The notes under the pieces: model-generated
Database searches by the model: none
What the model was told of the DNA's origin: nothing
What the model saw: only the letters and a program-made list of their open reading frames with translations
Made by a program: the position numbers and the translations under genes
Part shown: positions 5,491-40,644 of the stretch, piece by piece
Numbering within the stretch: position 1 is the stretch's first letter
Layout: every line of letters starts with the position of its first letter
DNA from: a bacterium
GTDB lineage: Bacteria > JAAXHH01
Direction: 5' to 3'
DNA length: 64,000 bases
Assembly: GCA_965242885.1 (NCBI GenBank)
Contig: CBDETH010000008.1
Span: forward strand, 1,442,225 to 1,506,224

Positions 5491-6279
5491 TTATCCAGGC
5501 CTTTGCCATGCCGCCGAAAGCCAGAACGGTAGTGCCGCGCGGGGATTCACCTTCCAGTCCACCAACCGCTTGTCCTTGCCCGGACGATAGGAGGCCCCCT
5601 CCCAGGCATTCGAATCCTCCGCGGGACGTTCCAGGATGTGCCGAAGGACCAGGCCTGCATCTGCCCCGGGGTTCAGCAGGTCGGCCATCGTCCAGTTGAA
5701 TTCGAAGGTTCCCTCTTTTTCGTCCCGAATAGGTCCTGTCTGCCAGTAGGGTTTGTCGACTTCAATGGACATGGCCTCATCCGACCACGGACGCTGGAAA
5801 GGATGCACATCGTAGAAGACGTAGTGTCCTCCCGGTCTCAGTATGCGAAAGACCTCCCCGTAAACCGCGCGGAGATCCGCGATCCAGACGAAGAACCCGT
5901 TGGTCGAACAGACCAGGTCGAACGAACGGTCCGCGATCACGCCGAGATCCATCGCGTCCGCCCGCACGAAGTCTATCGCCAGGCCCAGCTGATCCGCCCG
6001 TGTTGAAGCGGTGGCCAACTGTCGCTCGGAAATATCGATGGAAGTAACATGAGCCTTCATGCCCGCGAGGGCGAAGACGGCATGATTGTCCCCGCTGCCT
6101 ACGACGGCGACGTCCTTCCCTTCCACACTGCCGGTAAGGGATCCGATCAACTCGTATGCGCCGCCCGCGAATCCCAGTTCGGGTTCCTCCGGGCATCGGC
6201 GCCACAGACCGTCCCGGTCCCGCATTTCGGCCCAGGATCCGGCATTGTTGTCCCAGGATCGACGATTGGCATCGTGCAT
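5491..6279 (-). CDS. SAM-dependent methyltransferase, paralog of 3016-3861, with upstream in-frame start-codon repeat array
   Basis: Motif VAVVGSGDNHAVFALAGMKAHVTSIDIS...RADAMDLG. The conserved core starts at ATG 6279 (MHDANRRSW...). The open frame continues through four more ATG-containing repeat units (6309, 6339, 6369, 6399) up to 6597. Confidence 0.7.
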   Translation of the reverse strand: MHDANRRSWDNNAGSWAEMRDRDGLWRRCPEEPELGFAGGAYELIGSLTGSVEGKDVAVVGSGDNHAVFALAGMKAHVTSIDISERQLATASTRADQLGLAIDFVRADAMDLGVIADRSFDLVCSTNGFFVWIADLRAVYGEVFRILRPGGHYVFYDVHPFQRPWSDEAMSIEVDKPYWQTGPIRDEKEGTFEFNWTMADLLNPGADAGLVLRHILERPAEDSNAWEGASYRPGKDKRLVDWKVNPRAALPFWLSAAWQRPG

Positions 6280-6410
6280 CTCCACGGTCCGACGATTGGC
6301 ATCGTGCATCTCCGCGGTCCGGTGATTGGCATCGTGCATCTCCGCGGTCCGACGATTGGCATCGTGCATCTCCGCGGTCCGGTGATTGGCATCGTGCATC
6401 TCCGCGGTCC
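6261..6410. repeat. 30-bp x5 perfect or near-perfect tandem repeat (gacgattggcatcgtgcatctccRcggtcc)
   Basis: Units at 6261-6290, 6291-6320, 6321-6350, 6351-6380 and 6381-6410. On the minus strand each unit encodes RTAEMHDANR(H/R), so each includes an in-frame ATG. Confidence 0.9.
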
Positions 6411-6762
6411 GGCGAGGCGTTGTTGCGGTCATGGCGGCTGGCCTGTTCTTGAAACCGTATATACCGGTGTTGACACCCGGGCAATGGGGGAACTGTTGTC
6501 GTCCGTGTATCCGTCGATCGGGCATCCTTAATATATGAAAGAACACTCCGTAGCCGCAAGCGTACCGCATAAGGCGCTCTTCCTTGCAGGATGCCATTGA
6601 AAATCGGGGAATTCAACCGGCGCGCGGATACGAAAAATAGCCTTGACAGTCGCCGCGTGATCGTGCCTTGTTAACAGGTACGAACGTTTGAGAATCCATC
6701 CGACGCCCGTGCCACAGGGAGGCGCGGCACGGATCATGGAACCGCATCCGCGGAGGAGTGTC

Positions 6763-9768: not shown

Positions 9769-9878
9769 CGCCCGATCCGGCTTCCGAGCCAGGGAGATCC
9801 ACGGGGCGTGTCCCCGGGCCAGGCGGCCGGGGCGCGACCCCGCATCACCCGGCCTGAGCCGAGGAATGGAGTTTCTTC

Positions 9879-11708
9879 ATGACACACGGGTGGGCCGGAC
9901 ATATCCTGCGGGTGGACCTGTCGCGGGGCAAGGCGACCAAAGAACCCCTGAGACTGGACTGGGCCGAGGAATACATCGGCGGCCGCGGACTGGCCGCCCG
10001 GTATCTCTACGAGGAGATGGACCCCTCGGCCGACGCCCTCGGTCCCGACAACAAGCTCATCATGGCCACCGGGCCGCTTACGGGCACCAATGCCTCCTGC
10101 GCCGCCCGCTACATGGTGGTCACCAAGGGACCGCTCACCGGCGCCATCACGACGTCCAATTCGGGCGGCCACTGGGGCCCTGAACTCAAGTTCGCCGGCT
10201 ACGACATGGTGATCGTGGAAGGCCGGGCCGACCGTCCCTGCTACCTCCTCGTCGACGATGACCGCGTCGAGATCCGCGACGCCGCCGGCGTGTGGGGCAA
10301 AGTGGTCTCGGAGACCGAGGACGCCATCCGCGACGAGACCGGCATGCCCGAACTGCGGGTGGCCGGCATCGGTCCGGCGGGCGAGAACCTGGTGCGGTTC
10401 GCGTGCATCGTCAACGACAAGCACCGGGCGGCCGGCCGTTCCGGCGTCGGCGCCGTCATGGGCTCCAAGAACCTCAAGGCCATCGCCGTACGCGGCAACC
10501 AGGGCGTGCGGGTCGCGCGGCCCCTGGATTACATGTCCGCCATCTGGTCCTACCACGAGCATCTGGCGGAGAGCCCCGGCCGGCAGGGCCTCACGGAACT
10601 GGGCACGGCCCCCACGGTCGACCTGGTCAACACCTTCGGCGGCCTGCCGACCCGCAATTTCACGGCCGGCCAGTTCGAAGGCACCGAGGCGATCAACGGG
10701 GAGAGCATCAAGGACAACTGGCTGATCGCAAACAAGGCGTGCTTCGCCTGCAATATCGCCTGCGGCCGCGTGACCCAGGTGTCCCCCAACGCCGACAAGT
10801 ACATGGTCAACATGCATCCCCGCAACTGGAAGGTCGCCGGGGAGGGACCGGAGTACGAGAACCTCTGGTCGCTGGGGGCCGACTGCGGCGTGGACGACAT
10901 GGACGCCATCGTCATGGCCAACTACCTGTGCAACGACCTGGGCATGGATCCCATCTCCATGGGCGCCACGCTGGCCACGGCCATGGAGATGTACGAGCGG
11001 GGCCTGCTGAACGATGATCAGACGGGCATGGCGCTCCGGTTCGGAGACGGCAAGGCCCTGGTCGCCATGACGGAAGCCACGGGATTCCGGGAAGGCTTCG
11101 GCGACGAACTGGCCGAAGGCTCCAAGCGGATGACCGACAAGTTCGAGCACCCGGAGTACTTCATGGGCGTCAAGGGGCAGGAGTTCCCGGCCTATGATCC
11201 CCGGGGATTCCAGGGCATGGGCGTGGCCTATGCCACCTGCAACCGCGGCGCCTGCCACCTGAGGGCCTGGACGCCCGGCATCGAGACCAGCGGAGAGTAC
11301 GATCCCCACGGCACTGACGGGAAGTCGGTCTGGGTGGCCGAGGAGCAGAACCGGACCACGGCCCACGACGCCACGGGCATCTGCATGTTCACCACGGCGG
11401 GCGCGCCCCTGGACGACCTGATCCCCGTGCTGTCCGCGGCCACCGGCGTGGACTACACCATGGACGACTTCGTGCACATCGGCGAGCGGATCTGGAACAT
11501 CGAACGGCTGTGGAACCTGAAGGCCGGTCTCACCGCGGCCGATGACACGCTGCCGAAAAGACTGATGGAAGAGGCCCACAAGGAAGGGCCTTCGGCGGGC
11601 GTGACCGTCGATCTCGACGCCATGCTGCCGGACTACTACGCCGCCCGGGGATGGACGGCGGACGGACGGCCCACCACGGAAAAACTGGTGGAGCTGGGCC
11701 TCGCGTAG
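9879..11708 (+). CDS. aor: Tungsten-containing aldehyde:ferredoxin oxidoreductase (AOR family), copy 2, a tandem paralog
   Basis: About 65-70% identical to copy 1 along its whole length (GHILRVDLSRGKATKEPL...GGRGLAARYLYEEMDP...). Confidence 0.9.
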   Translation: MTHGWAGHILRVDLSRGKATKEPLRLDWAEEYIGGRGLAARYLYEEMDPSADALGPDNKLIMATGPLTGTNASCAARYMVVTKGPLTGAITTSNSGGHWGPELKFAGYDMVIVEGRADRPCYLLVDDDRVEIRDAAGVWGKVVSETEDAIRDETGMPELRVAGIGPAGENLVRFACIVNDKHRAAGRSGVGAVMGSKNLKAIAVRGNQGVRVARPLDYMSAIWSYHEHLAESPGRQGLTELGTAPTVDLVNTFGGLPTRNFTAGQFEGTEAINGESIKDNWLIANKACFACNIACGRVTQVSPNADKYMVNMHPRNWKVAGEGPEYENLWSLGADCGVDDMDAIVMANYLCNDLGMDPISMGATLATAMEMYERGLLNDDQTGMALRFGDGKALVAMTEATGFREGFGDELAEGSKRMTDKFEHPEYFMGVKGQEFPAYDPRGFQGMGVAYATCNRGACHLRAWTPGIETSGEYDPHGTDGKSVWVAEEQNRTTAHDATGICMFTTAGAPLDDLIPVLSAATGVDYTMDDFVHIGERIWNIERLWNLKAGLTAADDTLPKRLMEEAHKEGPSAGVTVDLDAMLPDYYAARGWTADGRPTTEKLVELGLA

Positions 11709-18170: not shown

Positions 18171-18230
18171 GCGCGCCACCTCGCGCGTGCGCCACCTCGC
18201 GCGTGCGCCACCTCGCGCGTGCGCCACATC
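18171..18230. repeat. 16-bp x3.75 tandem repeat (gcgccacctcgcgcgt) in the 5' leader of the dehydratase gene
   Basis: Units at 18171-18186, 18187-18202 and 18203-18218, with a partial unit at 18219-18230. The unit is not a multiple of 3, so it is non-coding. Confidence 0.85.
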
Positions 18231-19315: not shown

Positions 19316-20611
19316 TCAGCGACTCCTTTCCTTGATGTAGATATTCCCGCTGTTCGTCTTCAGACGGATCCGATCGCCACCGCCGTTGAGGTCGCCGCTG
19401 GCTTCGCTCTGCACGTAGAAAAAAACGCCCCATTCGCTCTGGTTCAGGCGGAAATCCGAATCGATGTGGCCCAGATCATCGCGCCACAGCCGGCTTAACA
19501 GGAGTCCACCCGACGATCCCTCCGCATCGATCGTAGCCGGCAGGTCTTCGGGCAGATAGATGGTGACGTCTCCTTCGGTGGTTTCAAGGTTACGTTGGGT
19601 TTCAGGGCCGCGTTCTGTATCTTGAGAGTCGGTTTCCGTCTGTGCTGTATCCCGGCTTGTGCGGGCAACATACACTTCGATGCTGCCGCGAATAGCCTGC
19701 GCCTTTACTGAGCCCCGTGCGTCGAAGAGGTGTATATTGCCGTCGAGCGCGCCTGCGTCAATCTCTCCATCCGTTGTATCCGTTTCGATGTTTCCATCCT
19801 CGGTATCTACTGTCACTGCGCTCTGTGCGCCGCGGACCGAAATGTCGCCGTCTGTCGTCGAGGCGCTGACATCGCCCGTCACGCGACGGATGTAGATATT
19901 GCCGTCCACGGATTTCGCCGCTACAGTGCCTCGCGTGTTGTGGATTTCGATATCGCCATCGGTCGAACGAGCCGTGACGGGACCGCGGGTGGAGTTGATT
20001 TCGATGTCGCCGTCCACGGCGTGGGCCGTGACAGAACCTGTTACCTCTTCAATCTCGACGTTGCCGTCCGTCGTGCCTGCGTCGACCAGACCTTCCGCCG
20101 TGCGGATTTCGATGTCGCCGTCCACGGTTCGGGCTGTGACGGGACCCATCACCTCTTCTATCTCGATATTCCCATCAACGGTCGTGAGATCCAGTGTGCA
20201 CGATACGGGCACGCGTACGTTCATTTCAACGGTTACACGATTGCGAAAGAAAATCGACTCATCTTTGTCAACAACCCGGATATGCACTTCGTTATCCCGC
20301 CGCGACAGTACCACCTCGACTTCTTCGAAAGCGTTGCGCGCCCGATCTTCACGCCGGCCTTCGATCCGTTTTTCTATATGAATCTCCACCTCGTCGTTCG
20401 TCCAGCTGTCCACCTGGATCGATCCGATCTCGGCCTCCAACGTCAAGGTTGCTGCCGGGTCGACCGTGTATCGCCGCTCGATGGTTTCCACGAACCCGTC
20501 TTCATCGCGCGCGAAGGTGGCTTCCTGTGCGTCACCTGGCGAAGGCGCTACGATGAACAGGGCGAGCCATGTACAGCATACAACTGCGCGATACAGGGGT
20601 TTCATTATCAT
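19316..20611 (-). CDS. DUF4097-family beta-strand-repeat ('putative adhesin') protein, paralog 1
   Basis: Signal peptide, then repeated VDGNIEIEEVxGxVTAxxVDGDIEI... units. Confidence 0.6.
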   Translation of the reverse strand: MIMKPLYRAVVCCTWLALFIVAPSPGDAQEATFARDEDGFVETIERRYTVDPAATLTLEAEIGSIQVDSWTNDEVEIHIEKRIEGRREDRARNAFEEVEVVLSRRDNEVHIRVVDKDESIFFRNRVTVEMNVRVPVSCTLDLTTVDGNIEIEEVMGPVTARTVDGDIEIRTAEGLVDAGTTDGNVEIEEVTGSVTAHAVDGDIEINSTRGPVTARSTDGDIEIHNTRGTVAAKSVDGNIYIRRVTGDVSASTTDGDISVRGAQSAVTVDTEDGNIETDTTDGEIDAGALDGNIHLFDARGSVKAQAIRGSIEVYVARTSRDTAQTETDSQDTERGPETQRNLETTEGDVTIYLPEDLPATIDAEGSSGGLLLSRLWRDDLGHIDSDFRLNQSEWGVFFYVQSEASGDLNGGGDRIRLKTNSGNIYIKERSR

Positions 20612-20671
20612 GCTGACCGAGTTGGTTGAGTTCGACCTTCACTTAAAAGGATTTGACCGCACAGAACGGTT

Positions 20672-21541
20672 TCAGGAGGAGCCGACCGTAACGCGTCCCC
20701 CCAGGGCACTGGAGTTCACTTTACCTCCCACTTCGTCGATATCGATACTTCCGCCGATCGTCTTCACGTCCACATCGCCAAGCGTTGGGCCGATTTCGAT
20801 GTTCCCGCCTACCGTCCCGGCTTTGACGTTACCCTGGACCCTGCCGATTTCGATGTTTCCACCCGTCGTTTTCACGTCGACATCTCCACCGGTGTCACCG
20901 ATTTCAATGTCACCACCCGTAGTCTTCGCCTTCACGCCGCCATCCGCCCGTTCGACCGTGATGTCTCCACCGGTCGTAGACGCCTCGGTTTCCCTGCCGC
21001 CGCCCCGTATCCTGATGTCTCCTCCGGCGGTGCCGGCCGTGACGTCGCCGTCCGAGACGGTGCCGATATCCACGTCGCCTCCCGCGGTCCTGGCGTTGAT
21101 GTCGCCGTTCAGGTCGCCGGTCTCGATGTCCCCGCCCGATGTCTTGAGTTCCAGGTTGTAGGTTTCCGGCACCCGCACTTTCACTTTTACCGAAACCCGG
21201 TTGTTCCTGAACCATCCCGGCCGGTCGATCTCGACGCGCACGCCGTCCCGGTCCTGCGATATTTCCACTTCCACCTCTTCAAGTTCCTGCCGGGCCCGCT
21301 CCTCGTCGACTCTCCGGATCCTTTTCTCCACGAACACATCCACTTCGTTCCTGGACCAGGGCTCGACCTGTATGGAACCCATATCCGCATCTACGGTCAG
21401 GGTACCGCCCGGTTCTACCGCGTACTGCTCCTCGATCTGTTCCACATGACCGCGTCCATCCACCATGGAAGTAACCTCCTGCGCGCTGCATCCCGAAGCG
21501 ATGAACGCGAACACCATCGTCAACAGTCCTGAAGGTCTCAT
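20672..21541 (-). CDS. DUF4097-family beta-strand-repeat protein, paralog 2
   Basis: Signal peptide MRPSGLLTMVFAFIASGCSAQE; repeated TGGDIEIG/TGGDVDVKT units; SD gagggagg upstream. Confidence 0.6.
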   Translation of the reverse strand: MRPSGLLTMVFAFIASGCSAQEVTSMVDGRGHVEQIEEQYAVEPGGTLTVDADMGSIQVEPWSRNEVDVFVEKRIRRVDEERARQELEEVEVEISQDRDGVRVEIDRPGWFRNNRVSVKVKVRVPETYNLELKTSGGDIETGDLNGDINARTAGGDVDIGTVSDGDVTAGTAGGDIRIRGGGRETEASTTGGDITVERADGGVKAKTTGGDIEIGDTGGDVDVKTTGGNIEIGRVQGNVKAGTVGGNIEIGPTLGDVDVKTIGGSIDIDEVGGKVNSSALGGRVTVGSS

Positions 21542-21607
21542 AGCCTCCCTCGCTCGCTATACTGCTAATCTACCACTATGGACGCGCATCCGCAACGCTG
21601 TCCGGCG

Positions 21608-22915
21608 TCACTGTTTCTTGATTTCGATATTGCCGTTCGTCGTTTCGATCCTGATCGTGTCGCCGCCGCCGTTGATGTCGCCCCGGACCCTGGCCTGGCC
21701 GCCGCTTCCGTATCCGTATACCCGTGCCCATGTCGAATTGCGGCTGCCGATGTTGTCGTTACCGTCGATGTCGAATTCCGAATACACGCGGTAGTCGCGG
21801 CGTTTCCAGAATCCTGAAACACCGAGATCGACCGTGGCGTCGATAGTCGCCGCCAGGTCTTCCGGCAGATAGACCGTCACTTCGCCGCCGGTCGATTCAA
21901 GATGGCAACTGCGATCGACTGAGGGGTCTGTTCCGCCAAGTGCGACATTGAGGTCGCCCCCCGAGGTCTTTGCCGTCACGCCGCCCTGTGCGTTTTCAAT
22001 CTGGATGTCCCCGCCCGTGGTCCTGACCGTGACGGTTCCTCTGGCGTTTTCGATGTCGATGTCCCCGCCTCCGCTTTCGGCATCCACGCCATCCATCGCG
22101 TTTTCGATCTGGATATCGCCCCCCGAAGTTTCTATCGACAACCTGCCCGATGCGTTTTCGATGTCGATATCTCCACCGGACGACGTCGCCGTCAGCTTGC
22201 CGGCCGTGTTTTCGATCTCGATGTCTCCGCCGGATGTCCTGACATCCACGTCCCCATCGGCGTGTTCGATCTGGATATCGCCCCCGGAGGTCTGCACTAC
22301 CGTCCTTCCGCCGGCGTTTTCAATCCGAACGTCCCCCCCGGACGTTTTCATCCTGGAATCCGCGTCGCTGCTTTCCAAACGGATATCGCCTCCCGACGTG
22401 CGGACGTCGACGTTCGACTCGCGGATGTTCCCCATGACCACGTCGCCTCCCGACGACCGGGCGCGGACGTCACCTCGCAGGTCATCGATTACGATATCGC
22501 CGCCGGAGGCTTTAAGATCAAGATGGTAGCGTTCGGGGACCCGCACCGTGATACTTACGGTTACTCTGTTCCGCCGATTCGAATCCGGGCCGTCCACGCT
22601 GATGTGCACGTCATCGTCCCTTTTTTCCGTTCTGACCTCGATGTCGTCGAAGGCCCTGCGCGCCCGGCCTTCGTCTAAGAACTCCGACCGTTTTTCAACC
22701 GTCACGTTCACTTCGCCCTTCGCCCAACTGCTGATCTCAATCGATGCGAACGCGTTGTCCGTCGTCAGCGTACCCCCGGATTTCACCGGGAAGCTGTATT
22801 GGGACTGTTCTACGTAGTCCGCGCCGTCACGCATAAACTTTGTCTCCTGTGCACTGCTCGTATACACAGCGGATATTGAGGCGCAAATCAGCGCCGCCAT
22901 CCCCAGCGATCTCAT
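21608..22915 (-). CDS. DUF4097-family beta-strand-repeat protein, paralog 3
   Basis: Repeated SGGDIxIEN units. The ATG at 22915 (MRSLGMAALICAS...) has a strong SD gggagggg 4 nt upstream; the ORF frame extends to 22966 with a TTG. Confidence 0.6.
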   Translation of the reverse strand: MRSLGMAALICASISAVYTSSAQETKFMRDGADYVEQSQYSFPVKSGGTLTTDNAFASIEISSWAKGEVNVTVEKRSEFLDEGRARRAFDDIEVRTEKRDDDVHISVDGPDSNRRNRVTVSITVRVPERYHLDLKASGGDIVIDDLRGDVRARSSGGDVVMGNIRESNVDVRTSGGDIRLESSDADSRMKTSGGDVRIENAGGRTVVQTSGGDIQIEHADGDVDVRTSGGDIEIENTAGKLTATSSGGDIDIENASGRLSIETSGGDIQIENAMDGVDAESGGGDIDIENARGTVTVRTTGGDIQIENAQGGVTAKTSGGDLNVALGGTDPSVDRSCHLESTGGEVTVYLPEDLAATIDATVDLGVSGFWKRRDYRVYSEFDIDGNDNIGSRNSTWARVYGYGSGGQARVRGDINGGGDTIRIETTNGNIEIKKQ

Positions 22916-23028
22916 AGCCCCTCCCGTGATCATGGAAACGTCGCGTCGATGTGTGCTGAACTGCAACTACCTATAAGACTGTGGGGAAGGGGAAAATGTT
23001 GCGTGCGAGACAAGGATTTCCCGGTTGC

Positions 23029-23835: not shown

Positions 23836-24807
23836 CTACAGGTCGTCGGTGCTCAGCGTGCCGGCTTCGTGATGACGGCGGAATACGTCCCAGGTCTCCC
23901 TGATTCCCTCGTCCAGCGGCGTGTAGGGGATCTCGCCCACATCCTCCTGGATGGCGCGGTCATCGAGGTCGGGCGCAATGGGCAGGTTCAGGTCCAGGTG
24001 GGTGATGAGTCCCTCCGAACCCGGGACGACGCGCTCGATGGACGCGATGACTTCGTCGATGGTTACGACGTCGCCGCGGATGCTGTAGGCCCCGGCGCCA
24101 TCGGTGGCGGCTTCGCCGCAGCGGATGAAGGTTCGCGCCGTGTCGTTCACGTACTGCATGTTGTTTCGCCCGCCGTACCCGATCACGTACGGCCGGCTCA
24201 ACAGGGCGGCCTTGACCGCCTTCGTGGGGTCGGAGGTCAATCCGAAGTCCCGGCCCGGGCCGTACACGGTCCATGGCCGAAGACCGATGCTGGAAATGCC
24301 GTGGTCGAGGAAATACACCCGCGCGTTCGCCTCGTTGCATTGCTTGAAGACGCCGTAGTGGGTGACGGGCCGCAACACCGCGTCGTTGCCGACCGGACCC
24401 GCATCGTAGTCGTCCTCCATGCCGTAGACGGCCGCGGAACTCGCGTAGACGACGCGCTTGACGATGTCGTGGTGGGTTTTCGCCGCCTCGAAGACGTTCA
24501 GGGTGCCGATGACGTTGACCGTTGCGCCCTTGATGGGGTCGGCCCGGCACACGGGCACCTGCAGCCCGGCCAGGTGGATGATGCGGGAAGCGCCCGTTTC
24601 TCCGACTACCCGGGTGAAGTGGGTCCCGTCGGCGATGTCGCCCTTGATGAACCGGACCCGGGCAATCTGATCCTCGTCCATGATGAGCGCCATGCGGGCG
24701 GTGTGTTCCACCAGGTCGTAGATGGCGACGTCGTGTCCGTCGTCGACCAGGTTCTTCACAATCCACGAACCGATGCAACCATATCCGCCGGTGAGCAGAT
24801 ACTGCAT
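23836..24807 (-). CDS. NAD-dependent epimerase/dehydratase (extended SDR)
   Basis: N-terminal Rossmann fold LLTGGYGCIGSWIVKNL; YxxxK-type catalytic region; 323 aa. Confidence 0.8.
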   Translation of the reverse strand: MQYLLTGGYGCIGSWIVKNLVDDGHDVAIYDLVEHTARMALIMDEDQIARVRFIKGDIADGTHFTRVVGETGASRIIHLAGLQVPVCRADPIKGATVNVIGTLNVFEAAKTHHDIVKRVVYASSAAVYGMEDDYDAGPVGNDAVLRPVTHYGVFKQCNEANARVYFLDHGISSIGLRPWTVYGPGRDFGLTSDPTKAVKAALLSRPYVIGYGGRNNMQYVNDTARTFIRCGEAATDGAGAYSIRGDVVTIDEVIASIERVVPGSEGLITHLDLNLPIAPDLDDRAIQEDVGEIPYTPLDEGIRETWDVFRRHHEAGTLSTDDL

Positions 24808-24941
24808 AAAAAGGTCCTATTCTGCAGGGTGCAGGGACCAAAAATCATGGGCCGAAAAACCTCGTCCATGGTATGACGCGCAAGGTCGAGTGTCAAGGGA
24901 AACAGCCGCCTTCCCACGGGCCGGTCCGCGGCTCACATGGC

Positions 24942-25040
24942 GGCCCGCCGGCAACCTGTTCGAGGTACGTCCCACGGCCCGCCGGCAGCCTGTTCGAGGT
25001 ACGTCCCACGGCCCGTTTCCGGCCCGCCGGCAGCCGTTTT
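24942..25040. repeat. ~34-bp x2 (plus a degenerate third) tandem repeat (ggcccgccggcaRcctgttcgaggtacgtcccac) in the divergent intergenic region
   Basis: Units start at 24942 and 24976; a degenerate copy runs from 25010 to 25040. Confidence 0.8.
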
Positions 25041-25097
25041 AGTCCTTGATCGGACCCCGCCGGGCCGATACATTGTGCCCATCCCGGAACGACCGGC

Positions 25098-25157
25098 GAT
25101 CAACCGGCGATCAACCGGCGATCAACCGGCGATCAACCGGTGATCGACCGGTAAACG
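25098..25157. repeat. 12-bp x5 tandem repeat (gatcaaccggcg), each unit carrying GATC and ACCGG
   Basis: Units at 25098, 25110, 25122, 25134 and 25146. With a further GATC at ~25176, there are six GATC sites within ~80 bp. Confidence 0.85.
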
Positions 25158-25223
25158 GCCGGTATCTGTACGGAGATCGTCCGGTAAATCCAGTAGTTAC
25201 CATCCCCTCAAGCGATCTGTTTC

Positions 25224-27221
25224 ATGAGCGTACGCCAGCGGTCTTCCGCGCCGTCCGGAAAGCCGGATTCCCATCCTCCCGGTACGGGGCCTCCCGCCCG
25301 GCATGGCGGACTGGCGTCGGGCATGACGCTCCGGGCGGTGGGTCTCGGCCTGGGACTCTCCGTGTTCATGGCGTGGTGGGTGGTGCATTCCGCCTTCGAA
25401 GCTCATTCTTCCTACCTTTCCATTACCCACTTGCCCATGGCGGCGCTCTTCCCCTTCATGCTGGTCGTCTTCGTCATAAACGGCCTGTTGAAGCGTTTCG
25501 CGCCCACGCGGATCTTCACCGCGCCGGAACTGATCATCATCTTCTTCATCGTGTTCACGGCCTCGGCCGTCCCGGGATGGGCCTTTACCACCTACTGGGT
25601 CGCCATCCCATCCATCCCCCACTACTACGCCAATTCCGAGAACAGATACGTCGAGTTGTTCTTCGAGTACCTGCCGACCTGGCTGATCGTCCCCGACGAA
25701 CGGCGGGCCGTGCACTGGTTCTACGAGGGCCTGCCGTCTACGGGTATCATTCCCTGGCGGGACTGGATCATCCCCATGAGCTGGTGGGGTACCTTCTTCC
25801 TGGCCCTCTTCTTCGCCAGCGCATCGCTCATGGTGATCCTGCGCAAGCAATGGATCGAAAGGGAGCGGTTGACCTTCCCGCTGGCCCGCGTTCCCCTGCT
25901 GCTCGTCGAGGATGACGACAGCGGTTCCGTGCTGCCCCGGATCGCCCGGTCCAGGGTGTTCTGGTACGGTTTTTCTATCCCCCTCTTCGTCATCCTGTGG
26001 AATATCGTCTCGTACTGGGACTTCGTGCCGCCCATCAAACTGGGCGGCGATTACCGCATCCCGATCACCCTGGCCGAATCCTTCCCCCCGATACAGTTCA
26101 AGATCAGTTTCGCTTTCATCGGCATCGGCTTCTTCACGAACCTCAATATCCTGTTCAGCATCTGGGTATTCTTCCTGTTGGCCACAATCCAGATCGGCAT
26201 CATGAGCCGGTTCGGCATTCCGAAGACGACCGAGATCGTCACGGCGCAGCACCTGGGCGGTTTTTTCATGTACACGCTCTTCGGACTCTGGATGGCGAGA
26301 CGCCACCTATACGACGTGGTGCGAAAGGCCATCGGCCGGGGACAAGACATTGATGATTCGGGGGAGTTCTTCTCGTACCGGACCGCCATGGCGGGCGTGG
26401 TGTTCGGCATCGTCTACATGTTTTTCTTTCTGATCAGCATGGGCATGTCATTTGCCGCCGCGGCCACGCTGCTGGCCACCTGCATGCTGCTCTTTATCGG
26501 GGTCACCCGCGTAGTGGCGGAAGCCGGTCTGATCTACCTGGACCTGCCCTACAACGCCCACGAATTCACGGTTTTTTCCTTCGGGTCGGCGAACCTGCAC
26601 CGGGCCGACCTCACGATACTGACGCTGTCCCAGACCTTCTCGAGGAACTGGCGGACACTGGGCATGTGCGCCATGGCACACGTCAACAAGATGGGCGACG
26701 AGATCGGCGGGGCCCGGCGCGGGATTTTCCCGGTCATCGTCTCGGCCCTCCTCATGGCCGCGGTCATATCGGTCGTCTATACGGTGTTCCTGGGTTACGA
26801 TACCACCGGAGCGGACGGGTTCGAGGACGCCTTCGGCAATGCAAAGAGAGGCTACGAGACGCTGGCGACGTGGATCAACAACCAGACGCAGTTGACCGGC
26901 GGCGAGTACATGGGCCTGGGGGTCGGCGCGCTCACCGCCTGGCTGCTGATCCTGGCCCACCACAACTTCCACTGGTGGCCGCTGCATCCCATCGGCTGGG
27001 CGGTCGCCAAGACCTGGGCCATCGGGATGATCGCCACTTCGATTTTCATGGTCTGGCTCATCAAGGCCATAATCATGAAACTGGGCGGCACGAGACTCTA
27101 CCGCCAGTCGCAGCCCTTCTTCATCGGCATGCTGGTGGGGTACGTACTGGGTGTCGCACTTTCCTACGGCGTGGATGTGATCTGGTTTCCCGCCTCGGGG
27201 CATATCGTGGAGACGTGGTAA
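25224..27221 (+). CDS. Polytopic integral membrane protein, uncharacterised family, paralog A (665 aa, ~14 predicted TM)
   Basis: Many hydrophobic helices. Conserved blocks shared with paralogs B and C: ILRKQWIERERLTFP, VAEAGL, WWPLHPIG, GQPFFIG. Confidence 0.6.
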   Translation: MSVRQRSSAPSGKPDSHPPGTGPPARHGGLASGMTLRAVGLGLGLSVFMAWWVVHSAFEAHSSYLSITHLPMAALFPFMLVVFVINGLLKRFAPTRIFTAPELIIIFFIVFTASAVPGWAFTTYWVAIPSIPHYYANSENRYVELFFEYLPTWLIVPDERRAVHWFYEGLPSTGIIPWRDWIIPMSWWGTFFLALFFASASLMVILRKQWIERERLTFPLARVPLLLVEDDDSGSVLPRIARSRVFWYGFSIPLFVILWNIVSYWDFVPPIKLGGDYRIPITLAESFPPIQFKISFAFIGIGFFTNLNILFSIWVFFLLATIQIGIMSRFGIPKTTEIVTAQHLGGFFMYTLFGLWMARRHLYDVVRKAIGRGQDIDDSGEFFSYRTAMAGVVFGIVYMFFFLISMGMSFAAAATLLATCMLLFIGVTRVVAEAGLIYLDLPYNAHEFTVFSFGSANLHRADLTILTLSQTFSRNWRTLGMCAMAHVNKMGDEIGGARRGIFPVIVSALLMAAVISVVYTVFLGYDTTGADGFEDAFGNAKRGYETLATWINNQTQLTGGEYMGLGVGALTAWLLILAHHNFHWWPLHPIGWAVAKTWAIGMIATSIFMVWLIKAIIMKLGGTRLYRQSQPFFIGMLVGYVLGVALSYGVDVIWFPASGHIVETW

Positions 27222-27354
27222 TCGCCGGCAACGAGGCGGCGCGCGGTACCGAGGCGGAACGAGATATCGAGGCGAACCGCACGGTCGAGGCGGCCGCACA
27301 GTCAAGGCGGACCGCGCCGCCGAAAATGAAGACGAAAACGAAAGGAGTACCTGT

Positions 27355-34079: not shown

Positions 34080-36074
34080 ATGGCCTCAGTACAGCAAAGT
34101 GTTTCCGCCTCCGCTGTCCGTGCGACCGCGACCCGGATCATTACGCCGCGGTCCATTCTCCTGGGCCTGCTGAGCGTCGTCCTGATCTCCCTCATCGTCC
34201 CCTATTTCCAGTACACCATGGCCTCGTCCCAGCTGGGCGCGGATCATCTCCACATCGGCGCGCTGTTTCTGGCCTTCGGGTACCTGGTCGTTTTCAACGT
34301 GGTGCTGGCCAGGTGGAAGAAGGACTGGGCCCTCACGCCCCACGAGTTCGTCATACCCCTGGTCATGGGCATGGCGGCATCGGGGCTGACGACCAACGGC
34401 ATGGGCGCCCCGTTCATCTCCACGCTGATGGCACCCTACCTGCTGGCGACGCCCGAGAACCAGTGGGCCGAGTACTTCTACCCGTACCTGCAACCCTGGG
34501 CGACGGTCACGAACCAGGGCAACGCCCTCACGTGGCTGGTAGACGGTATACCGCCCGGCGTGTCCATTCCCTGGAGCGTGTGGGGCATTCCGCTGTTCTG
34601 GTGGCTGACTTTCATCGTCCCGGTCATCTTCATGGGCCTGTGTCTCGTGGTCATCCTCAGGCGGCAGTGGGTCGAACACGAGAAGCTTGTCTTTCCCATG
34701 ATGCAGATCCCCCTCGCCTTCACCCGCGGCATGGAGTCGCCGAGCCGCGTCCCGGCCTTTCTCTCGGAGAAGCGGTTCTGGATCGGCTTTTCCATCCCCT
34801 TCTGCGTGATGATGTACAACATTGTCGGGTTCTTCACCCCGGTCGTGCCCCAGTTCCCCTATTTCGGGTCGGCGCCGCCCATCGTATTCGGCGAGGGATT
34901 CCCCCCGCTGGAAATCAACTTCCGCCCGGCCATCCTGGGCATTTCCTATTTCGTCAATTTGGATGTCCTCGCCGGTTTCTGGGTGTTCTACATGATCGGG
35001 ATCATCCAGGTGGGCATCGCCCACCGGATCGGGTACGACATCCCGGGACGGGACAACTACACCTCGATCCATCCCATGCTGGACTGGCAGAACATGGGCG
35101 CGTTCATCCTGTTCGTGGGATGGGGGCTGTGGCGGGCGCGGTTTCACATCCGCGCCGTGTGCTCACAGGCCTTCGGCCGCCGGTCGGACCTGGATGACTC
35201 GGACGAGATGCTGCCCTACCGGGTCGCGGTTTTCGGGTTCATCGGAGGCTTCGTCTACGGGGTGGTCTGGCTGAACCAGCTGGGCATGGGCGTACCCATT
35301 GCCGTGTTCCTCCTCGCCGGGGTATTCATCATCTACATCGGCGTATCCCGCATCATCGCCGAGGCCGGGCTGCCCTACGTGCGTTCGCCCATGATCGCCC
35401 AGGTGCTCGTGTTCTATTCGGTCGGGTCGGCCAACCTTTCCATGTCCACCATGACGGCCATGGCCCAGACGTACGGACCCGTCAGCGAGATCAAGTCTAC
35501 CTTCATGCCCGCCTTCATGCAGGCGGCCAAGCTATCCGAGATCGGCACGCGCTGGCAGCGCGGCCTGGGTTGGTCGCTCCTGTCCGCCGCGGTGATCGGC
35601 GTGGTGATCTCGCTGGTCTGGACGATCTACCTGGGGTTCGACCTGGGCACGCGCCAGTTCACCAACGGCTGGTGGTTCGGCCGGATCGGATCGACCATCC
35701 CCTATAATGAAACGCTCACCAAGATGCGGGACCCCTTCGGGCCCGACACGTCGCGGCTCATGTTCTTCCTGGTGGGCGGTGCGCTCATGTTTCTGCTCAT
35801 GACGCTGCGGGCCCGGCTGCCGGGCTGGCCGCTGCATCCCCTCGGGTTCTTCCTTTCATACTCCTGGCCCGCCCGGGCGATCGTCTCGTCCATGTTCGTG
35901 TGCTGGGTCATCAAGAGCATCATGATGTGGGTCGGCGGCATCGAACTGTACCGGAAGGGGCAGCCCTTCTTCCTGGGCCTGATCTTCGGCGTGGTCACCG
36001 GCGTGGTCATCTCCATGTTCGTCGACTACGTGTGGTTTCCCCACGCAGGTCATCACATCTACGGGATAGACTAG
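34080..36074 (+). CDS. Polytopic integral membrane protein, uncharacterised family, paralog B (664 aa)
   Basis: Colinear with paralog A (ILRRQWVEHEKLVFP, IAEAGLPY, GWPLHPLG, GQPFFLG). Its stop TAG lies 1 nt before the GTG start of the downstream fusion gene. Confidence 0.6.
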   Translation: MASVQQSVSASAVRATATRIITPRSILLGLLSVVLISLIVPYFQYTMASSQLGADHLHIGALFLAFGYLVVFNVVLARWKKDWALTPHEFVIPLVMGMAASGLTTNGMGAPFISTLMAPYLLATPENQWAEYFYPYLQPWATVTNQGNALTWLVDGIPPGVSIPWSVWGIPLFWWLTFIVPVIFMGLCLVVILRRQWVEHEKLVFPMMQIPLAFTRGMESPSRVPAFLSEKRFWIGFSIPFCVMMYNIVGFFTPVVPQFPYFGSAPPIVFGEGFPPLEINFRPAILGISYFVNLDVLAGFWVFYMIGIIQVGIAHRIGYDIPGRDNYTSIHPMLDWQNMGAFILFVGWGLWRARFHIRAVCSQAFGRRSDLDDSDEMLPYRVAVFGFIGGFVYGVVWLNQLGMGVPIAVFLLAGVFIIYIGVSRIIAEAGLPYVRSPMIAQVLVFYSVGSANLSMSTMTAMAQTYGPVSEIKSTFMPAFMQAAKLSEIGTRWQRGLGWSLLSAAVIGVVISLVWTIYLGFDLGTRQFTNGWWFGRIGSTIPYNETLTKMRDPFGPDTSRLMFFLVGGALMFLLMTLRARLPGWPLHPLGFFLSYSWPARAIVSSMFVCWVIKSIMMWVGGIELYRKGQPFFLGLIFGVVTGVVISMFVDYVWFPHAGHHIYGID

Positions 36075-36075
36075 C

Positions 36076-39000
36076 GTGTATTCGCGGATATTCGGTTTTT
36101 TCTTCCTCGCCGTGGGCGTCCTGTTGTTCCTCGCCGTGGCCGTCGCCGGCCCGGCCTGGGTGACAGAGCACGTGATCCTCAGGATCGTCTCCATTCCGGA
36201 AGACGTGCCGCCCAGGCCCCTCGAGGAAGCGCCGGTGTCCTGGGAGGAAGTTTCCGAAATCGTTACGCGGGAGCGTGTGGAGGCTCATGTCCGGGCGATG
36301 AGCGAGAACCCGTCGCGCGTCGTCGGCTATCCGGGAAACCGGGCGGCCATGGAATACGTGGTCGATGCCTTCCGTGCCGGAGGCCTGGCAGAGGTCACGG
36401 TCGACACCTTCACGGTATCCTCGCCCGTCGACCATGGTTTCACGCTGACCGTGCACGACGCCGTGGAGACCGAGATACCGGTGTATCAGTTCTGGCCCAA
36501 CCTGGTCCGGCTGAATTCCTTTCCTGACGGGATCCGGGGACCCCTGCACTACGGCCAGCGGGGCGAATTCCAGGCCTTCAACGGGAAAGAGATCGAGGGC
36601 AGCATCGTCCTGGTCGATTTCGACGGGCGCGACCAGTACCTCAACGCGCGGATGCTCGGAGCCCGGGCCGTGCTGTTCCACGACAGCGGCCCCGGTTCCG
36701 TGACCAACAACCAGGCCCAGCGCAAGATCCTGGACGTGCCCGCCGACGTGCCGCGCTTCTGGGTCCCGGACCCCCACGCCGCCGCTGTCCTGGCGGCCGC
36801 GCGGTCCGGCGATGTCGAAGTGACGATCCGTGGACACATGACGTGGGAACGGGCCGAGACCTGGAACGTCATGGGGTGGATACCGGGCCGGGACGAACCG
36901 CTGCCGGGGAGCGACGGCACGGAGAAATGGAAAGACCGGATCGTCGTGCTGTCGGCGTTCTACGACGCCATGTCGGTCGTACCCGGTCTGGCGCCGGGCG
37001 CCGAGAGCGCGGGGGGTATCGCCGCCATGCTGGAGCTGATGGACGTGCTCCGGGCCCATCCGCCGGGATACACCGTGCTGTTCCTGGCCACGTCCGCCCA
37101 TTTCCACGGGCTGCAGGGCGTAAACGACTTCCTGGACCGGCACCAGCGAAAGGACGAGTTCTTCCTGGAACGGATCCCCGAAGAGGACCGGATCCCCTTC
37201 GACCTGTTCCTGGGCCTGGACCTCACCAGCAGGGCGGACCAGGTCGGCCTGTTCAGCTACGGCGATTTCATCTTCTTCACCTCGAATCTGGATATCCTGT
37301 ACGAACCCTATGCGGACCGGTACCTGAATTACGCGCGCAAGGCCGGGGTCCACGATGATGAGGATAGCCGGACGGCCTATCTCAACACGCTGACGCACCC
37401 GCTCCGGTCGCAGGAAAGCTTCATGCCCGCCGGTCCCGCCTTCGACCACGAGATGGTCACGCTCGCCGGGCTCCACGGCATGACCTTCGCCACGGTAAAC
37501 GACAACAGACTCCTCATCGACACCCCGAAGGACCGGATCGAGTACGTCGATTTCCCCAACCTGGTCCGGCAGATCCGAACGCTGGGCACGCTGCTGCCGG
37601 CCATGCTGTCCGATCCCGTGGCCTTCGACGTGGACGAGTCGATTCGGCTCAAGGACGAGGGCCGCGACATTGAAGGCCGGGTCCTCGAATTCGACCGAAC
37701 GGTGGATTTCTTCAAGCCCAATACCCCGGTCTCCGACGCCCTGGTCGTCTACGAGCCCGGATACCAGAGCCACAGCGGCGTTCGTGGGTTCATGGTTACC
37801 CACGCCGACTCGCTGGGGCATTTCCGGCACTCCATGGTCCGGTTCCCCCGGGGACCGACGGAACTGCGCAGTTACGGCCTCGCCGCCGACGGCCGGATCG
37901 TGTACGCCCCCGACCTCGGTGAAGAAGGCAACGCCACCTTTCCCCTCGCGGTGCCGAACTCATCCAAGGTGAACAATACCATACAGGTCCTCTTCCCCTG
38001 CGAGGAGATCAACCTCTTCGATATCGTGGACCCCGGCGTCTTCGTCGCCCTCGACAACCTGACCGTACTCGGCCGGGACAACAGCCCGCTGCGCAAGTAC
38101 GGCGCGGCCTTCGTGGAAGACCAGAGTTTCTTCGGCAACTGGATGACCAACGCCGCGGTGGTCTTCGCCCGGCCCGAGGACCGGGTCAAGATGTTCATGA
38201 GCTCGGGTCCCCGGGGTGTCAAGTACCTGCTGACCAACACGCCCGAATCGTGGCTCGACGAACCGCCGGTAAGCATCTCGGACGACGCCATGGCCCTGGC
38301 CCAGGGACGGGGATTCACGGCGGACCAGGGCCTGATCCTCTACCCCTTCTACCAGAGCGCCCTGGACCTGTGGTCGCTCAACCGGGCCCGCCTGATGAAA
38401 CTGGAGGATCACGGCGTGACCAACGCCCGGGCCGCCGAGCTGCACGAGGAGAGCACCGAAGCGCTTCGGGCCGCCCGGGAGGCCCTGGAGAACCGCCGAT
38501 ACGACGCCTTCGCCGCGCGGTCGAGAGAGGCGTGGGGCTTCGAGGCGCGGGCTTATCCCGACGTGCGGTACGCCGCGGACGATACGGTGGACGGCATCGT
38601 GTTCTACTTCATGCTGCTGGTCCCCTTCTGTTTCTTCCTCGAACGGCTTTTCTTCGGTTTCACGGACATTCGGAAGCGGCTGGCCTCGGTGGGCGTCATC
38701 TTCGCGGCGGTCTTCATGCTGCTGCAGAACGTGCACCCCGCCTTCCAACTCAGCCTGACGCCGTACATGGTCTTTCTCGCCTTCCTCATCCTGGCCATGG
38801 CGCTGATCATCATCACCATGATCGTCACCCGGTTCGACACCGAGATGAAGAACCTGACCCGGTCTGCGGCCGGCCTCCACGAGGCGGACATCGGCCGGCT
38901 GAGCGCCACGGCCGTGGCCATTTCCCTGGGGATATCGAACCTGCGCAAGCGGAAGATGCGCACGGCGCTGACCGCGGTCACGCTGACCCTGCTGACCTTC

Positions 39001-40644
39001 ACCGTCTTGTCCTTCACTTCCTTCCGGACCGGCATCCAGTTCTATACGCTGGACCGCGAAAACACCCCGCCGTACGACGGCGTCCTCATGCGCAGCCTGT
39101 CGTGGCACTCCCTGCCCACGTCCTTCCTGCCCTACGTGGAGAACGCCTTCGAAGACCAGGCGGACGTGGTACCCCGGTCCTGGTACGAGCCGGAGGACAT
39201 GGTCAGCCCCTATATCGACCTGCGTGTGCGGGGCAAGGGGACCGCCACCACGGTACAATCCATCCTGGGACTGCACGCCGACGAACCGGCCGTCACCGCG
39301 CTGGACCGCTACCTGGTGCCGGGCGGACGGTGGTTCGCCCCGGACGAAAGGGCGGCCTGCCTGCTGCCCACGGAACTGGCCGAGCGGCTGGACGTGGGGC
39401 CGGAGGACGTGGGTACGGCGGAGGTGGAGATCCTCGGTGGACGCTATACGGTGATCGGACTGCTCGATTCCGAGGGGTTCGACGCCTACCGGGACATGGA
39501 CGACGAGAGCATCATGCCCGCCAGCTTCTCCATGACACGCTCGCTTACCGATATGGACATCGAAGTGTTCATGTCCACCATCCAGGCCTCCGAACACCTG
39601 CCGTCCCGCAACGTGCTGGTCCTGCCCTACCGGCAGACGCTCGACCTGAACGGGTCCACGCGGTCCGTGGCCATCGCGGGGTTCTCAGGCGGCGAAGAGC
39701 TCCGCGATTCCGTTGAGGCCTTCATGTCGCGGGTCCTCCTGGCCGTGTTCGTCGGCATGGAAGACGAAGTGAGGGTCTACAGCTCCCTGGGCGCTACTTC
39801 GGTCTCGGGCCTGGCCAACCTGATCATCCCGGTGCTCATCGCGGCGTTCCTGGTGTTGAATACCATGATGGGCGCCGTGTTCGAACGGTTCCGGGAAATC
39901 GGCGTGTACAGCGCGGTCGGGCTGGCCCCGAACCACGTCGCCGCCCTGTTCATCGCCGAAGCCGCCGTATTCGCGACGCTCGGGGCCGTCTTCGGTTACC
40001 TGTCCGGCCAGATCATCACCATGGGGCTCTCGCAATGGGACCTGCTGGGTGGCATGTCGCTCAACTATTCCTCCCTTTCGACCGTTTACGCCACGTTGGT
40101 CGTCATGGCCATCGTCTTCCTGTCCACCCTCTACCCGGCGAAGAAGGCCGCGGACATGACGGTAGAGGACGTGACGCGGCGCTGGTCGCCCCCGCCGCCC
40201 GACGAAGACGACTGGTGCTTCGAGTTCCCGTTCACGGTGACCGTACCCGAAGCGTTGCCGCTGTCGGGCTACCTGAACCACATCTTCCAGACCCATGAAG
40301 ACAGTTCGGCAGAGGACTTCGTCGCCGAGGGGACCACGCTCGACGCGATACCGGGGGATACCTACGACACGTATCACGTGGCATCCACCGTCTGGCTGGC
40401 GCCGTACGACCTCGCCATCAGCCAGGACGTGCGGCTTGAACTGGAGCCCGTGCTTCACGAAAGACTGTACCGCATCCTGATCGTGATCCACCGCCGCAGC
40501 GGTGACCTGGCGCAATGGCAGACGATCAACCGGCGGTTCTTCACCGTATTGAGGAAGCGGTTTCTGGTATGGCGGACCCTGGCAGAGCCCATAAAGGCGC
40601 GGTACCGGGATATCAAAGCCTTCGATCGCCACACGGCCCTGTAA
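36076..40644 (+). CDS. Fusion protein: N-terminal TM + M28-peptidase-like/PA ectodomain + two FtsX-like permease modules (1522 aa)
   Basis: PA domain (GSIVLVDFDGRDQYLNARMLGARAVLFHD). M28-like core (VVLSAFYDAMSVVPGLAPGAESAGGIAAMLELMDVL...LATSAHFHG). FtsX/MacB-type TM1 (LRKRKMRTALTAVTLTLLTFTVLSF). C-terminal FtsX domain (GAVFERFREIGVYSAVGLAPNHVAALFIAEAAVFATLGAVFGYLSG). Confidence 0.7.
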   Translation: MYSRIFGFFFLAVGVLLFLAVAVAGPAWVTEHVILRIVSIPEDVPPRPLEEAPVSWEEVSEIVTRERVEAHVRAMSENPSRVVGYPGNRAAMEYVVDAFRAGGLAEVTVDTFTVSSPVDHGFTLTVHDAVETEIPVYQFWPNLVRLNSFPDGIRGPLHYGQRGEFQAFNGKEIEGSIVLVDFDGRDQYLNARMLGARAVLFHDSGPGSVTNNQAQRKILDVPADVPRFWVPDPHAAAVLAAARSGDVEVTIRGHMTWERAETWNVMGWIPGRDEPLPGSDGTEKWKDRIVVLSAFYDAMSVVPGLAPGAESAGGIAAMLELMDVLRAHPPGYTVLFLATSAHFHGLQGVNDFLDRHQRKDEFFLERIPEEDRIPFDLFLGLDLTSRADQVGLFSYGDFIFFTSNLDILYEPYADRYLNYARKAGVHDDEDSRTAYLNTLTHPLRSQESFMPAGPAFDHEMVTLAGLHGMTFATVNDNRLLIDTPKDRIEYVDFPNLVRQIRTLGTLLPAMLSDPVAFDVDESIRLKDEGRDIEGRVLEFDRTVDFFKPNTPVSDALVVYEPGYQSHSGVRGFMVTHADSLGHFRHSMVRFPRGPTELRSYGLAADGRIVYAPDLGEEGNATFPLAVPNSSKVNNTIQVLFPCEEINLFDIVDPGVFVALDNLTVLGRDNSPLRKYGAAFVEDQSFFGNWMTNAAVVFARPEDRVKMFMSSGPRGVKYLLTNTPESWLDEPPVSISDDAMALAQGRGFTADQGLILYPFYQSALDLWSLNRARLMKLEDHGVTNARAAELHEESTEALRAAREALENRRYDAFAARSREAWGFEARAYPDVRYAADDTVDGIVFYFMLLVPFCFFLERLFFGFTDIRKRLASVGVIFAAVFMLLQNVHPAFQLSLTPYMVFLAFLILAMALIIITMIVTRFDTEMKNLTRSAAGLHEADIGRLSATAVAISLGISNLRKRKMRTALTAVTLTLLTFTVLSFTSFRTGIQFYTLDRENTPPYDGVLMRSLSWHSLPTSFLPYVENAFEDQADVVPRSWYEPEDMVSPYIDLRVRGKGTATTVQSILGLHADEPAVTALDRYLVPGGRWFAPDERAACLLPTELAERLDVGPEDVGTAEVEILGGRYTVIGLLDSEGFDAYRDMDDESIMPASFSMTRSLTDMDIEVFMSTIQASEHLPSRNVLVLPYRQTLDLNGSTRSVAIAGFSGGEELRDSVEAFMSRVLLAVFVGMEDEVRVYSSLGATSVSGLANLIIPVLIAAFLVLNTMMGAVFERFREIGVYSAVGLAPNHVAALFIAEAAVFATLGAVFGYLSGQIITMGLSQWDLLGGMSLNYSSLSTVYATLVVMAIVFLSTLYPAKKAADMTVEDVTRRWSPPPPDEDDWCFEFPFTVTVPEALPLSGYLNHIFQTHEDSSAEDFVAEGTTLDAIPGDTYDTYHVASTVWLAPYDLAISQDVRLELEPVLHERLYRILIVIHRRSGDLAQWQTINRRFFTVLRKRFLVWRTLAEPIKARYRDIKAFDRHTAL

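Follow-up and report, generated by a model that had tools for sequence, protein, structure and literature searches.

The gap between two divergently transcribed genes in a 64-kb window (the whole stretch of DNA analyzed here) from a repeat-rich sponge-symbiont genome carries two tandem arrays and a dense cluster of GATC sites, which raises the question of whether these repeats form a dedicated regulatory device, i.e., an operator or a methylation-sensitive switch, or simply accumulated beside the promoters of the two genes. The repeats are real: tandem duplications specific to one lineage, they flank two back-to-back promoters that are conserved. Our best reading, which we hold with moderate confidence, is that these are sigma70-type promoters whose flanks were lengthened, in one sponge-symbiont clade, by VNTRs made by slippage. 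The 416 bp at 24808-25223 make up the entire gap, and the features in and next to it are as follows:

23836-24807, minus strand: NAD-dependent epimerase/dehydratase gene (PF01370), whose start borders the gap
24808-24867, minus strand: predicted 5' leader of the epimerase gene, with degenerate short duplications (TGCAGGG x2, GGGMCSAAAAA x2), hypervariable among species
24868-24896, minus strand: predicted sigma70-type promoter of the epimerase operon (-35 TTGACA at 24896-24891, 17-nt spacer, -10 TACCAT at 24873-24868)
24941-25015, no strand assigned: 34-bp direct repeat CGGCCCGCCGGCARCCTGTTCGAGGTACGTCCCA, 2.2 copies (TRF, 97% matches), each copy starting with the 16-bp block CGGCCCGCCGGCAGCC
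25020-25035, no strand assigned: third, promoter-proximal 16-bp block CGGCCCGCCGGCAGCC, in its ancestral place, abutting the UP-like GTTTTAGTCC on the upstream side
25036-25074, plus strand: predicted promoter of the DUF6785 gene (UP-like GTTTTAGTCC, -35 TTGATC at 25046-25051, 17-nt spacer, -10 TACATT at 25069-25074)
25080-25091, plus strand: leader start CATCCCGGAACG, invariant in the array clade, which the first array unit completes to a CCGG...CCGG hairpin module, probably the one that was multiplied
25092-25190, plus strand: 11-bp array of nine in-phase units (ACCGGCGATCA x4, ACCGGTGATCG, ACCGGTAAACG, GCCGGTATCTG, TACGGAGATCG, TCCGGTAAATC)
25191-25223, plus strand: conserved distal leader CAGTnnTTnCCATCCCCTCAAGCG, ending at the ATG and without a Shine-Dalgarno-like motif
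25224-27221, plus strand: DUF6785/DUF6784 membrane protein gene (665 aa), ATG at 25224

Two conserved promoters and their leaders

A protein-seeded scan of species-representative genomes yielded 21 orthologous loci in which this divergent gene pair recurs (78-94% DUF6785 protein identity), all from uncultured MAGs labelled Latescibacterota or Gemmatimonadota, many of which we take to be sponge-derived from their isolate names. Two further orthologues came from metagenomes (L026 and L027), which brought the total to 23 loci, none of them identical to the window. Besides these two array-less loci, the metagenome protein scan returned a distant homologue rich in AT (L028) and a hit with 39% identity (L030), neither of them with an array; a metagenome DNA-pattern scan for more array variants found nothing, and exact-protein look-ups for strain variants of the window had none on record. 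The copy-number differences described below are those seen between species, not strains. On the epimerase side of the gap, the same operon continues 3' with a PhyH dioxygenase and then three DUF4097 “toastrack” proteins. For the DUF6785 family, we found no characterized member, PDB relative, NCBIfam model or paper.

The gap had initially been annotated as a divergent promoter region, and phylogenetic footprinting allowed both promoters to be placed. The epimerase-operon promoter matches 10 of 12 consensus positions in a consensus scan (0.1 expected in shuffles), and takes the form TTGACA-N17-TACCAT/TACAAT across the orthologous loci. Its TGTCAA is invariant in all eight aligned array-clade species, and both TGTCAA and CCAT(T/G)GTA are kept in most other loci, the -10 deviating in L008, L013, L014, L017 and L018. 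With just 8 of 12 consensus positions matched, the DUF6785-gene promoter does not appear in the consensus-scan list, but all 23 loci maintain its hexamers and 17-nt spacing around a spacer of varying sequence, a footprint that supports it as a promoter. Its -10 reads TACATT, TAAATT or, in three species, TATAAT; its -35 reads TTGATC, a form that contains a GATC (25046-25051 in the window), in 14 of the 23 loci, and TTGATG, TTGATT or TTGCTG in the others. Neither promoter is interrupted by repeats in any of the 23 loci.

Sequence identities were read against the fourfold-degenerate sites of the DUF6785 gene as a neutral benchmark (78% for the window vs. L001, 81% vs. L002). The plus-strand promoter is 96% identical in both of these comparisons (91-96% overall). 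At 58-70% identity to L001 and L002, the epimerase leader falls below the fourfold sites, and the other intergenic gaps of the same loci are 54-92% identical. Judged from the position of the -10, transcription of the DUF6785 gene is predicted to start near 25081 (~7 nt past the hexamer), which would place the 11-bp array at ~+12 to +110 of a 143-nt leader rather than upstream of the promoter.

Other elements considered for this region were rejected. No in-frame start lies upstream of 25224, as a leader peptide or an N-terminal extension of the DUF6785 protein would require. For a second promoter just past the array, the conserved CCAGTnnTTT block found there does not have the A2/T6 pattern of a -10 hexamer, and the consensus scan is silent at this position. 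An ECF-type promoter (GGAAC-N15/16-CGTAAT) noticed by eye in some array-less species has inconsistent spacing, and would be destroyed by the array in the carriers. The window also holds a second DUF6785/DUF6784 paralogue (664 aa, 34080-36074), within a 34080-40644 stretch in which it is followed after 1 nt by a 1522-aa protein with PA and M28 peptidase, MacB periplasmic-core and FtsX permease domains (to 40644). We also rejected shared regulation of the two paralogues, the second having its own promoter-like TTGACT-N17-TACATA and no CCGG array.

Evolution of the 34-bp and 11-bp arrays

The initial annotation described two copies, plus a degenerate third, of the 34-bp unit. TRF recovered this repeat, and what had been taken for a third copy is just the first 16 bp of the unit. 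A related 16-bp block stands at the same site, directly upstream of a UP-like GTTTTAG, in nearly all orthologues, and an inverted partial copy lies in the plus-strand promoter spacer (25057-25067). The window has three copies of the block, at 34- and 45-bp spacing. Of the orthologous loci, only L001 and L002 share the 34-bp array itself with the window, at 96% identity to the window copy in either case (binomial P = 2e-5 and 2e-4, respectively) and 92% identity to each other. Compared with 78-81% at fourfold sites, the array thus looks constrained. On these alignments, it is an older, constrained duplication that triplicated an ancestral 16-bp block upstream of the plus-strand promoter, and what its first 16 bp consist of, taken with this constraint, suggests that the extra copies are those of a putative binding site. 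The array would then most likely change the number and spacing of sites for whatever binds the 16-bp block. A repeated operator, as first proposed for the region, is therefore plausible for this array, which multiplied a conserved upstream promoter block and is conserved beyond neutral sites. In a neighbor-joining (NJ) tree, L016 and L018 are nested among the carriers and lack the 34-bp array, so that either the array is dispensable or the single-gene tree is wrong; recombination between 16-bp blocks would delete it cleanly.

The second array had been described as five 12-bp units. It does exist, but its period is 11 and its units comprise four identical ones, a near-identical one with two changes and four degenerate ones. 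TRF reports the unit ACCGGCGATCA with a period of 11 and 5.5 copies at 25092-25151, followed by a degenerate tail, and the phasing of CCGG extends the series to nine units (25092-25190). The TRF scores of the two arrays of the locus (143 and 106) are far above chance, with 0 arrays scoring at least 70 in 30 dinucleotide shuffles vs. 12 in the window. Neither this unit nor the 34-bp one recurs elsewhere in the window, and the 11-bp unit is not a generic dispersed minisatellite.

Eight species, including that of the window, carry 6-10 in-phase 11-nt units, and their leaders are longer by 4-8 x 11 nt. The 15 array-less loci (L026 and L027 included) have leaders of 64-67 nt, and ~35 bp between the two -35 hexamers. 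All carriers are monophyletic in the NJ tree of the DUF6785 coding sequence, and this single clade suggests a single origin of the 11-bp array. Between L003 and L004 (fourfold-site identity 0.90), the arrays differ by two clean single-unit indels. The array clade also has tandem duplications at two more sites of the gap, namely the epimerase leader and the inter-promoter stretch, where the window, L001 and L002 have the 34-bp unit, and L004, L018 and L019 have 11- or 22-bp GCGGCCTGT-type units.

Across the clade, 63 units give the consensus RCCGGYGAWCG, with an information content of 1.7-2.0 bits at C-G-G and 0.25-0.4 bits at position 9. Deviating cells make up 5.6% at CCGG vs. 34% at the other positions of these units, and the mean pairwise column mismatch in the cross-species alignment is 0.11 vs. 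0.40 (permutation p < 1e-4), this column signal being inflated to an unknown degree by alignment bias, as MAFFT tends to pair CCGG with CCGG. CCGG in 11-nt phase is, in these alignments, the conserved feature of the orthologous arrays. Its retention below the neutral rate implies that the array is not purely neutral, although part of the signal may reflect the alignment. Taken as a whole, the arrays are 72-76% identical between species (74-76% for the window vs. L001 and L002), in addition to unit-sized gaps, which is not above the neutral benchmark of 78-84%; the array as a whole thus looks unconstrained, and by this measure evolves at or above the neutral rate except for its CCGG core.

As for the source of the unit, array-less leaders begin with CATCCCGGAACGTCCGGAAAAC, in which a CCGG...CCGG pair constitutes a short direct repeat and a small hairpin, and MFE folds start with a 4-7-bp hairpin in the first ~20 nt for 11 of 14 array-less leaders. 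RNAalifold on these 14 leaders gave no pairs and no consensus structure, such that the ancestral leader hairpin is only suggestive. Likewise, the comparison is suggestive of array units being repeated copies of an ancestral CCGG...CCGG leader module. The run of four identical units, each with a GATC, reflects a recent burst of copying in this genome.

Beyond the observed repeats, promoter footprints, clade restriction, unit indels and rate differences, we infer the TSS, slippage as the mechanism, and any effect on expression. Replication slippage or tandem duplication would have pulled the two promoters apart and extended their flanks in one clade. The 11-bp array would have arisen once, by duplication of the ancestral CCGG-AACGN-CCGG hairpin/short direct repeat, and would behave as a VNTR within roughly the first 110 nt of the leader of the DUF6785 mRNA, gaining and losing whole units. 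Self-complementary CCGG (and here GATC too) may allow slipped hairpins, leading both to unit gain or loss and to an enrichment of CCGG-keeping units; alternatively, CCGG may be retained because extra GC-rich hairpins are tolerated or mildly useful in the leader RNA. The arrays may in this way tune the leader RNA and the dosage of the upstream operator. Several points sit less easily with the slippage reading, however: CCGG kept below the neutral rate means that the array is not purely neutral, an 11-bp period near one helical turn with ~8 conserved and 3 variable positions is the pattern of a cooperative DNA binder, the TSS on which the leader position depends is a predicted one, and the 34-bp array is missing from L016 and L018.

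GATC sites, leader RNA and operators

The count of six GATC sites first reported for this region holds: they start at 25098, 25109, 25120, 25131, 25142 and 25175, five of them exactly 11 bp apart, and their 81-bp span (25098-25178) is the densest spot of the window. The background of about one per 300 bp given with that count does not, as the window has 487 sites, or 1 per 131 bp, and an observed/expected ratio of 0.99 under a second-order Markov model (among other motifs, CTAG is strongly depleted, with 9 sites vs. 42 expected and a ratio of 0.22, and CCGG is unremarkable at 1.13). The eight orthologous arrays contain 6 (window), 3, 4, 2, 3, 0 (L016), 1 and 1 GATC, and the 15 array-less loci have no GATC cluster, only a single incidental leader GATC in a few. 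Across the window, the unit contains a GATC in 3 of 18 arrays, which is about the chance level (~1 array in six expected). Because the cluster consists of one 11-bp unit copied several times, it carries no evidential weight of its own, and the high GATC density is an incidental outcome of that copying.

These observations bear directly on the proposed methylation-sensitive switch of the pap/agn43 type, in which phased GATC just past the TSS would be either methylated by Dam or bound by a repressor, resulting in heritable ON/OFF states. Known switches of this type depend on GATC inside a regulator site (PMC4872104). The likeness lies in several GATC clustered in cis-regulatory DNA adjoining a promoter (six within 81 bp, and one more in the -35 hexamer TTGATC). 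Unlike in agn43/pap, the sites here are not conserved among orthologues (0, 1, 1, 2, 3, 3 and 4 in the other species), and are copies of one recently amplified repeat unit rather than parts of a regulator site, of a kind that about one array in six would show by chance. Among the 48 window ORFs, a Pfam scan identified SAM methyltransferases acting on small molecules but none acting on DNA, we saw no OxyR/Lrp-type or other regulator gene in the neighborhood that could compete with Dam, and a GATC ratio of 0.99 is uninformative on the presence of Dam. Such a switch is unlikely, to the point that we give it hardly any weight, and a tempting but unsupported epigenetic-switch reading is thereby removed.

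A rather unlikely, though more substantial, alternative is that the array acts at the RNA level, with CCGG units adding stable 5'-leader hairpins whose copy number tunes DUF6785 mRNA stability or translation initiation. The array does lie downstream of a conserved promoter, its retained core is self-complementary, and the same CCGG motif forms the small 5' hairpin of 11 of 14 array-less leaders. Expanded leaders also fold more stably (-0.31 to -0.43 kcal/nt vs. -0.12 to -0.29 for array-less ones), with an MFE of -58.1 kcal/mol for the window leader (z = -2.4 to -2.6). Yet none of the other seven species has a leader whose z-score against dinucleotide shuffles is significant, RNAalifold found no consensus structure, the flanking R and Y positions prefer no pairing combination (ACCGGC units mismatch each other), and the region has no terminator-like element. 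Against Rfam, neither the region (scanned permissively) nor the whole window (scanned at gathering thresholds) gave anything but chance miRNA-like matches, which arise because the array is self-complementary. The same period and core could instead serve a DNA operator, on which a regulator would sit head-to-tail on CCGGYGA units, along one helix face and downstream of the TSS, to repress the DUF6785 promoter; OmpR/PhoB-type response regulators and ribbon-helix-helix ParR-like proteins bind in this head-to-tail manner. We regard this as distinctly improbable, even though an 11-bp period, a conserved core with a variable tail and the below-neutral rate of that core are all as expected of an operator. 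A search for CCGGYGA-N4-CCGGYGA pairs across the 64-kb window and 30 loci, a limited sample, gave none outside the orthologous site (the search for a second site covered ~390 kb of related-genome loci beyond the window); no regulator, pho or par gene is nearby, the upstream region of the paralogue does not have the motif, and 15 related species have no array.

Two known systems with 11-bp units help to weigh the operator. In Streptomyces coelicolor, PhoP binds 2-8 tandem 11-nt units with the consensus G(G/T)TCAYYYR(G/C)G, and an A at position 2 blocks PhoP binding in Streptomyces (PMC2275107). Like these PHO boxes, the units here are tandem and spacer-free, number 6-10 (overlapping the 2-8 there), have a conserved core and a variable tail, and include poorly conserved units beside core units. 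The reverse complement of a sister-species unit (GTTCACCGGCC) matches the PhoP consensus, which comes from another phylum, at 9 of 11 positions and resembles GTTCACC. The structural hallmark, i.e., at least two consecutive 11-nt repeats with core and tail, is present. Read from the other strand, however, the window unit (GATCGCCGGTT) agrees with the consensus at just 6 of 11 positions and carries an A at position 2, which is disallowed. Conservation is highest at CCGG and not GTTCA, the array is situated past the predicted TSS with an orientation opposite to that of the gene, and no regulon sites or pho genes were seen in the sequence covered. In parC of plasmid R1, two sets of five 11-bp iterons flank the par promoter, act as an operator and bind one ParR dimer per iteron (PMC2241845). 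The array resembles this cooperative operator in its approximately five near-identical 11-bp direct repeats beside a promoter, and differs from it in being a single, chromosomal set on one (downstream) side of the promoter, with an unrelated unit sequence and, for neighbors, genes for epimerase, PhyH, DUF4097 proteins, DUF6785 and rhodanese rather than parR/parM-like ones. More broadly, it is possible to speculate that the phased CCGG array is a selected cis-element, a cooperative binding platform on DNA or leader RNA whose unit number would set the expression of the uncharacterized DUF6785 membrane protein, and that it represents one case of a lineage-wide habit in which tandem duplication remodels promoters and leaders, the density of repeats being ~ten times what is usual in bacteria, but we consider this broader proposal doubtful.

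Intergenic tandem repeats across the window

Returning to slippage-made VNTRs, the locus fits the definition of an intergenic VNTR on every testable feature, and is as such a further example of an already known feature type. The MIRU-VNTR loci of Mycobacterium tuberculosis are intergenic VNTR/minisatellite loci of bacteria. They share with this locus head-to-tail units of 10-50 bp in intergenic DNA, whole-unit copy differences between related genomes, outgroups without the array and the presence of many such loci in the genome. Unlike MIRU-VNTR, the units of different loci are unrelated here and make up no dispersed family, a palindromic CCGG core has stayed in 11-nt phase in one array, and differences are seen between species only. 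A second point of comparison is repeat-mediated promoter phase variation, as at the TAAA tract upstream of Neisseria nadA or with repeats between -35 and -10. Here too, a tandem repeat in a regulatory region has a copy number that could modulate expression, but units are 11 and 34 bp, not 1-7 bp, and both arrays lie outside the core promoters, with their -35/-10 spacers, and outside the coding frame (which an 11-nt unit would not keep). On/off switching by copy number, as at contingency loci, is thus not expected from the size and position of these units.

TRF array counts in the window and in comparison sequences were as follows:

Window, 64 kb: 18 arrays scoring at least 50, 12 scoring at least 70
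30 dinucleotide shuffles, mean: 0.43 and 0
Sinorhizobium meliloti pSymB, 50 kb, same GC: 2 and 0
Escherichia coli, 50 kb: 1 and 0

This corresponds to a repeat density ~7-14 times that of the two comparator genomes and ~40 times that of the shuffles. Intergenic DNA makes up just about a tenth of the window, yet at least 12 of the 18 arrays fall within it. Their units (9-34 bp) are unrelated, and they occupy divergent, co-directional and convergent gaps, including some convergent 3'/3' gaps where no promoter is expected. Moreover, a given intergenic position can carry arrays in several species whose units are unrelated, which points to a general propensity for intergenic tandem duplication rather than to a locus-specific device.

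Genomes of this uncultured sponge-symbiont lineage thus appear unusually rich in intergenic tandem repeats, a property that may be more useful than the locus itself and that matters for assembly quality, VNTR strain typing and regulatory evolution. Two points are mildly interesting in this respect, namely the retention of CCGG in helical phase and the exceptional density of intergenic tandem repeats in the lineage. The orthologous loci also constitute a natural series, in which the same two promoters come with either 0 or 6-10 units in the leader and either 1 or 3 blocks upstream, that is usable for tests of how duplication affects expression.

Among the other arrays, the top-scoring one in the window (6260-6415, 30-bp unit x5.2, 93% matches, score 270) lies upstream of the likely true start (ATG 6225) of a minus-strand class I SAM methyltransferase gene. 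Tandem units of 17 and 18 bp at 832-929 take up nearly all of a 104-bp gap between convergent genes, where no promoter is expected, and a perfect 16-bp x3.4 array (GCGCCACCTCGCGCGT, 18173-18227) sits in a divergent gap just upstream of a probable PLP-dependent-enzyme start (18264). Downstream of the DUF6785 stop, the gap before the rhodanese gene (27232-27343) is filled with 17-18-bp CGAGGCGG-type units, and unrelated arrays occupy the corresponding position in L008 (8019-8054), L014 (7886-7969), L018 (7973-8098) and the paralogue locus L023 (7999-8094), as if repeats had formed there repeatedly and independently. In L022, a related complete genome, a 32-bp x2.8 array (5864-5953) whose unit is unrelated to those of the window stands directly upstream of a DUF6785 paralogue. 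Further along, L002 has a ~3.6 kb insertion relative to the window between the rhodanese and glycosyltransferase genes (near 8000-11700), and loses synteny with it past the PIG-L gene. Repeats are also found within genes: the three DUF4097 toastrack genes (19316-22966 in the window, and in loci L003-L020) contain in-frame 54- and 108-bp coding repeats, whose copy number and length vary by species, with large gaps in alignments against L001.
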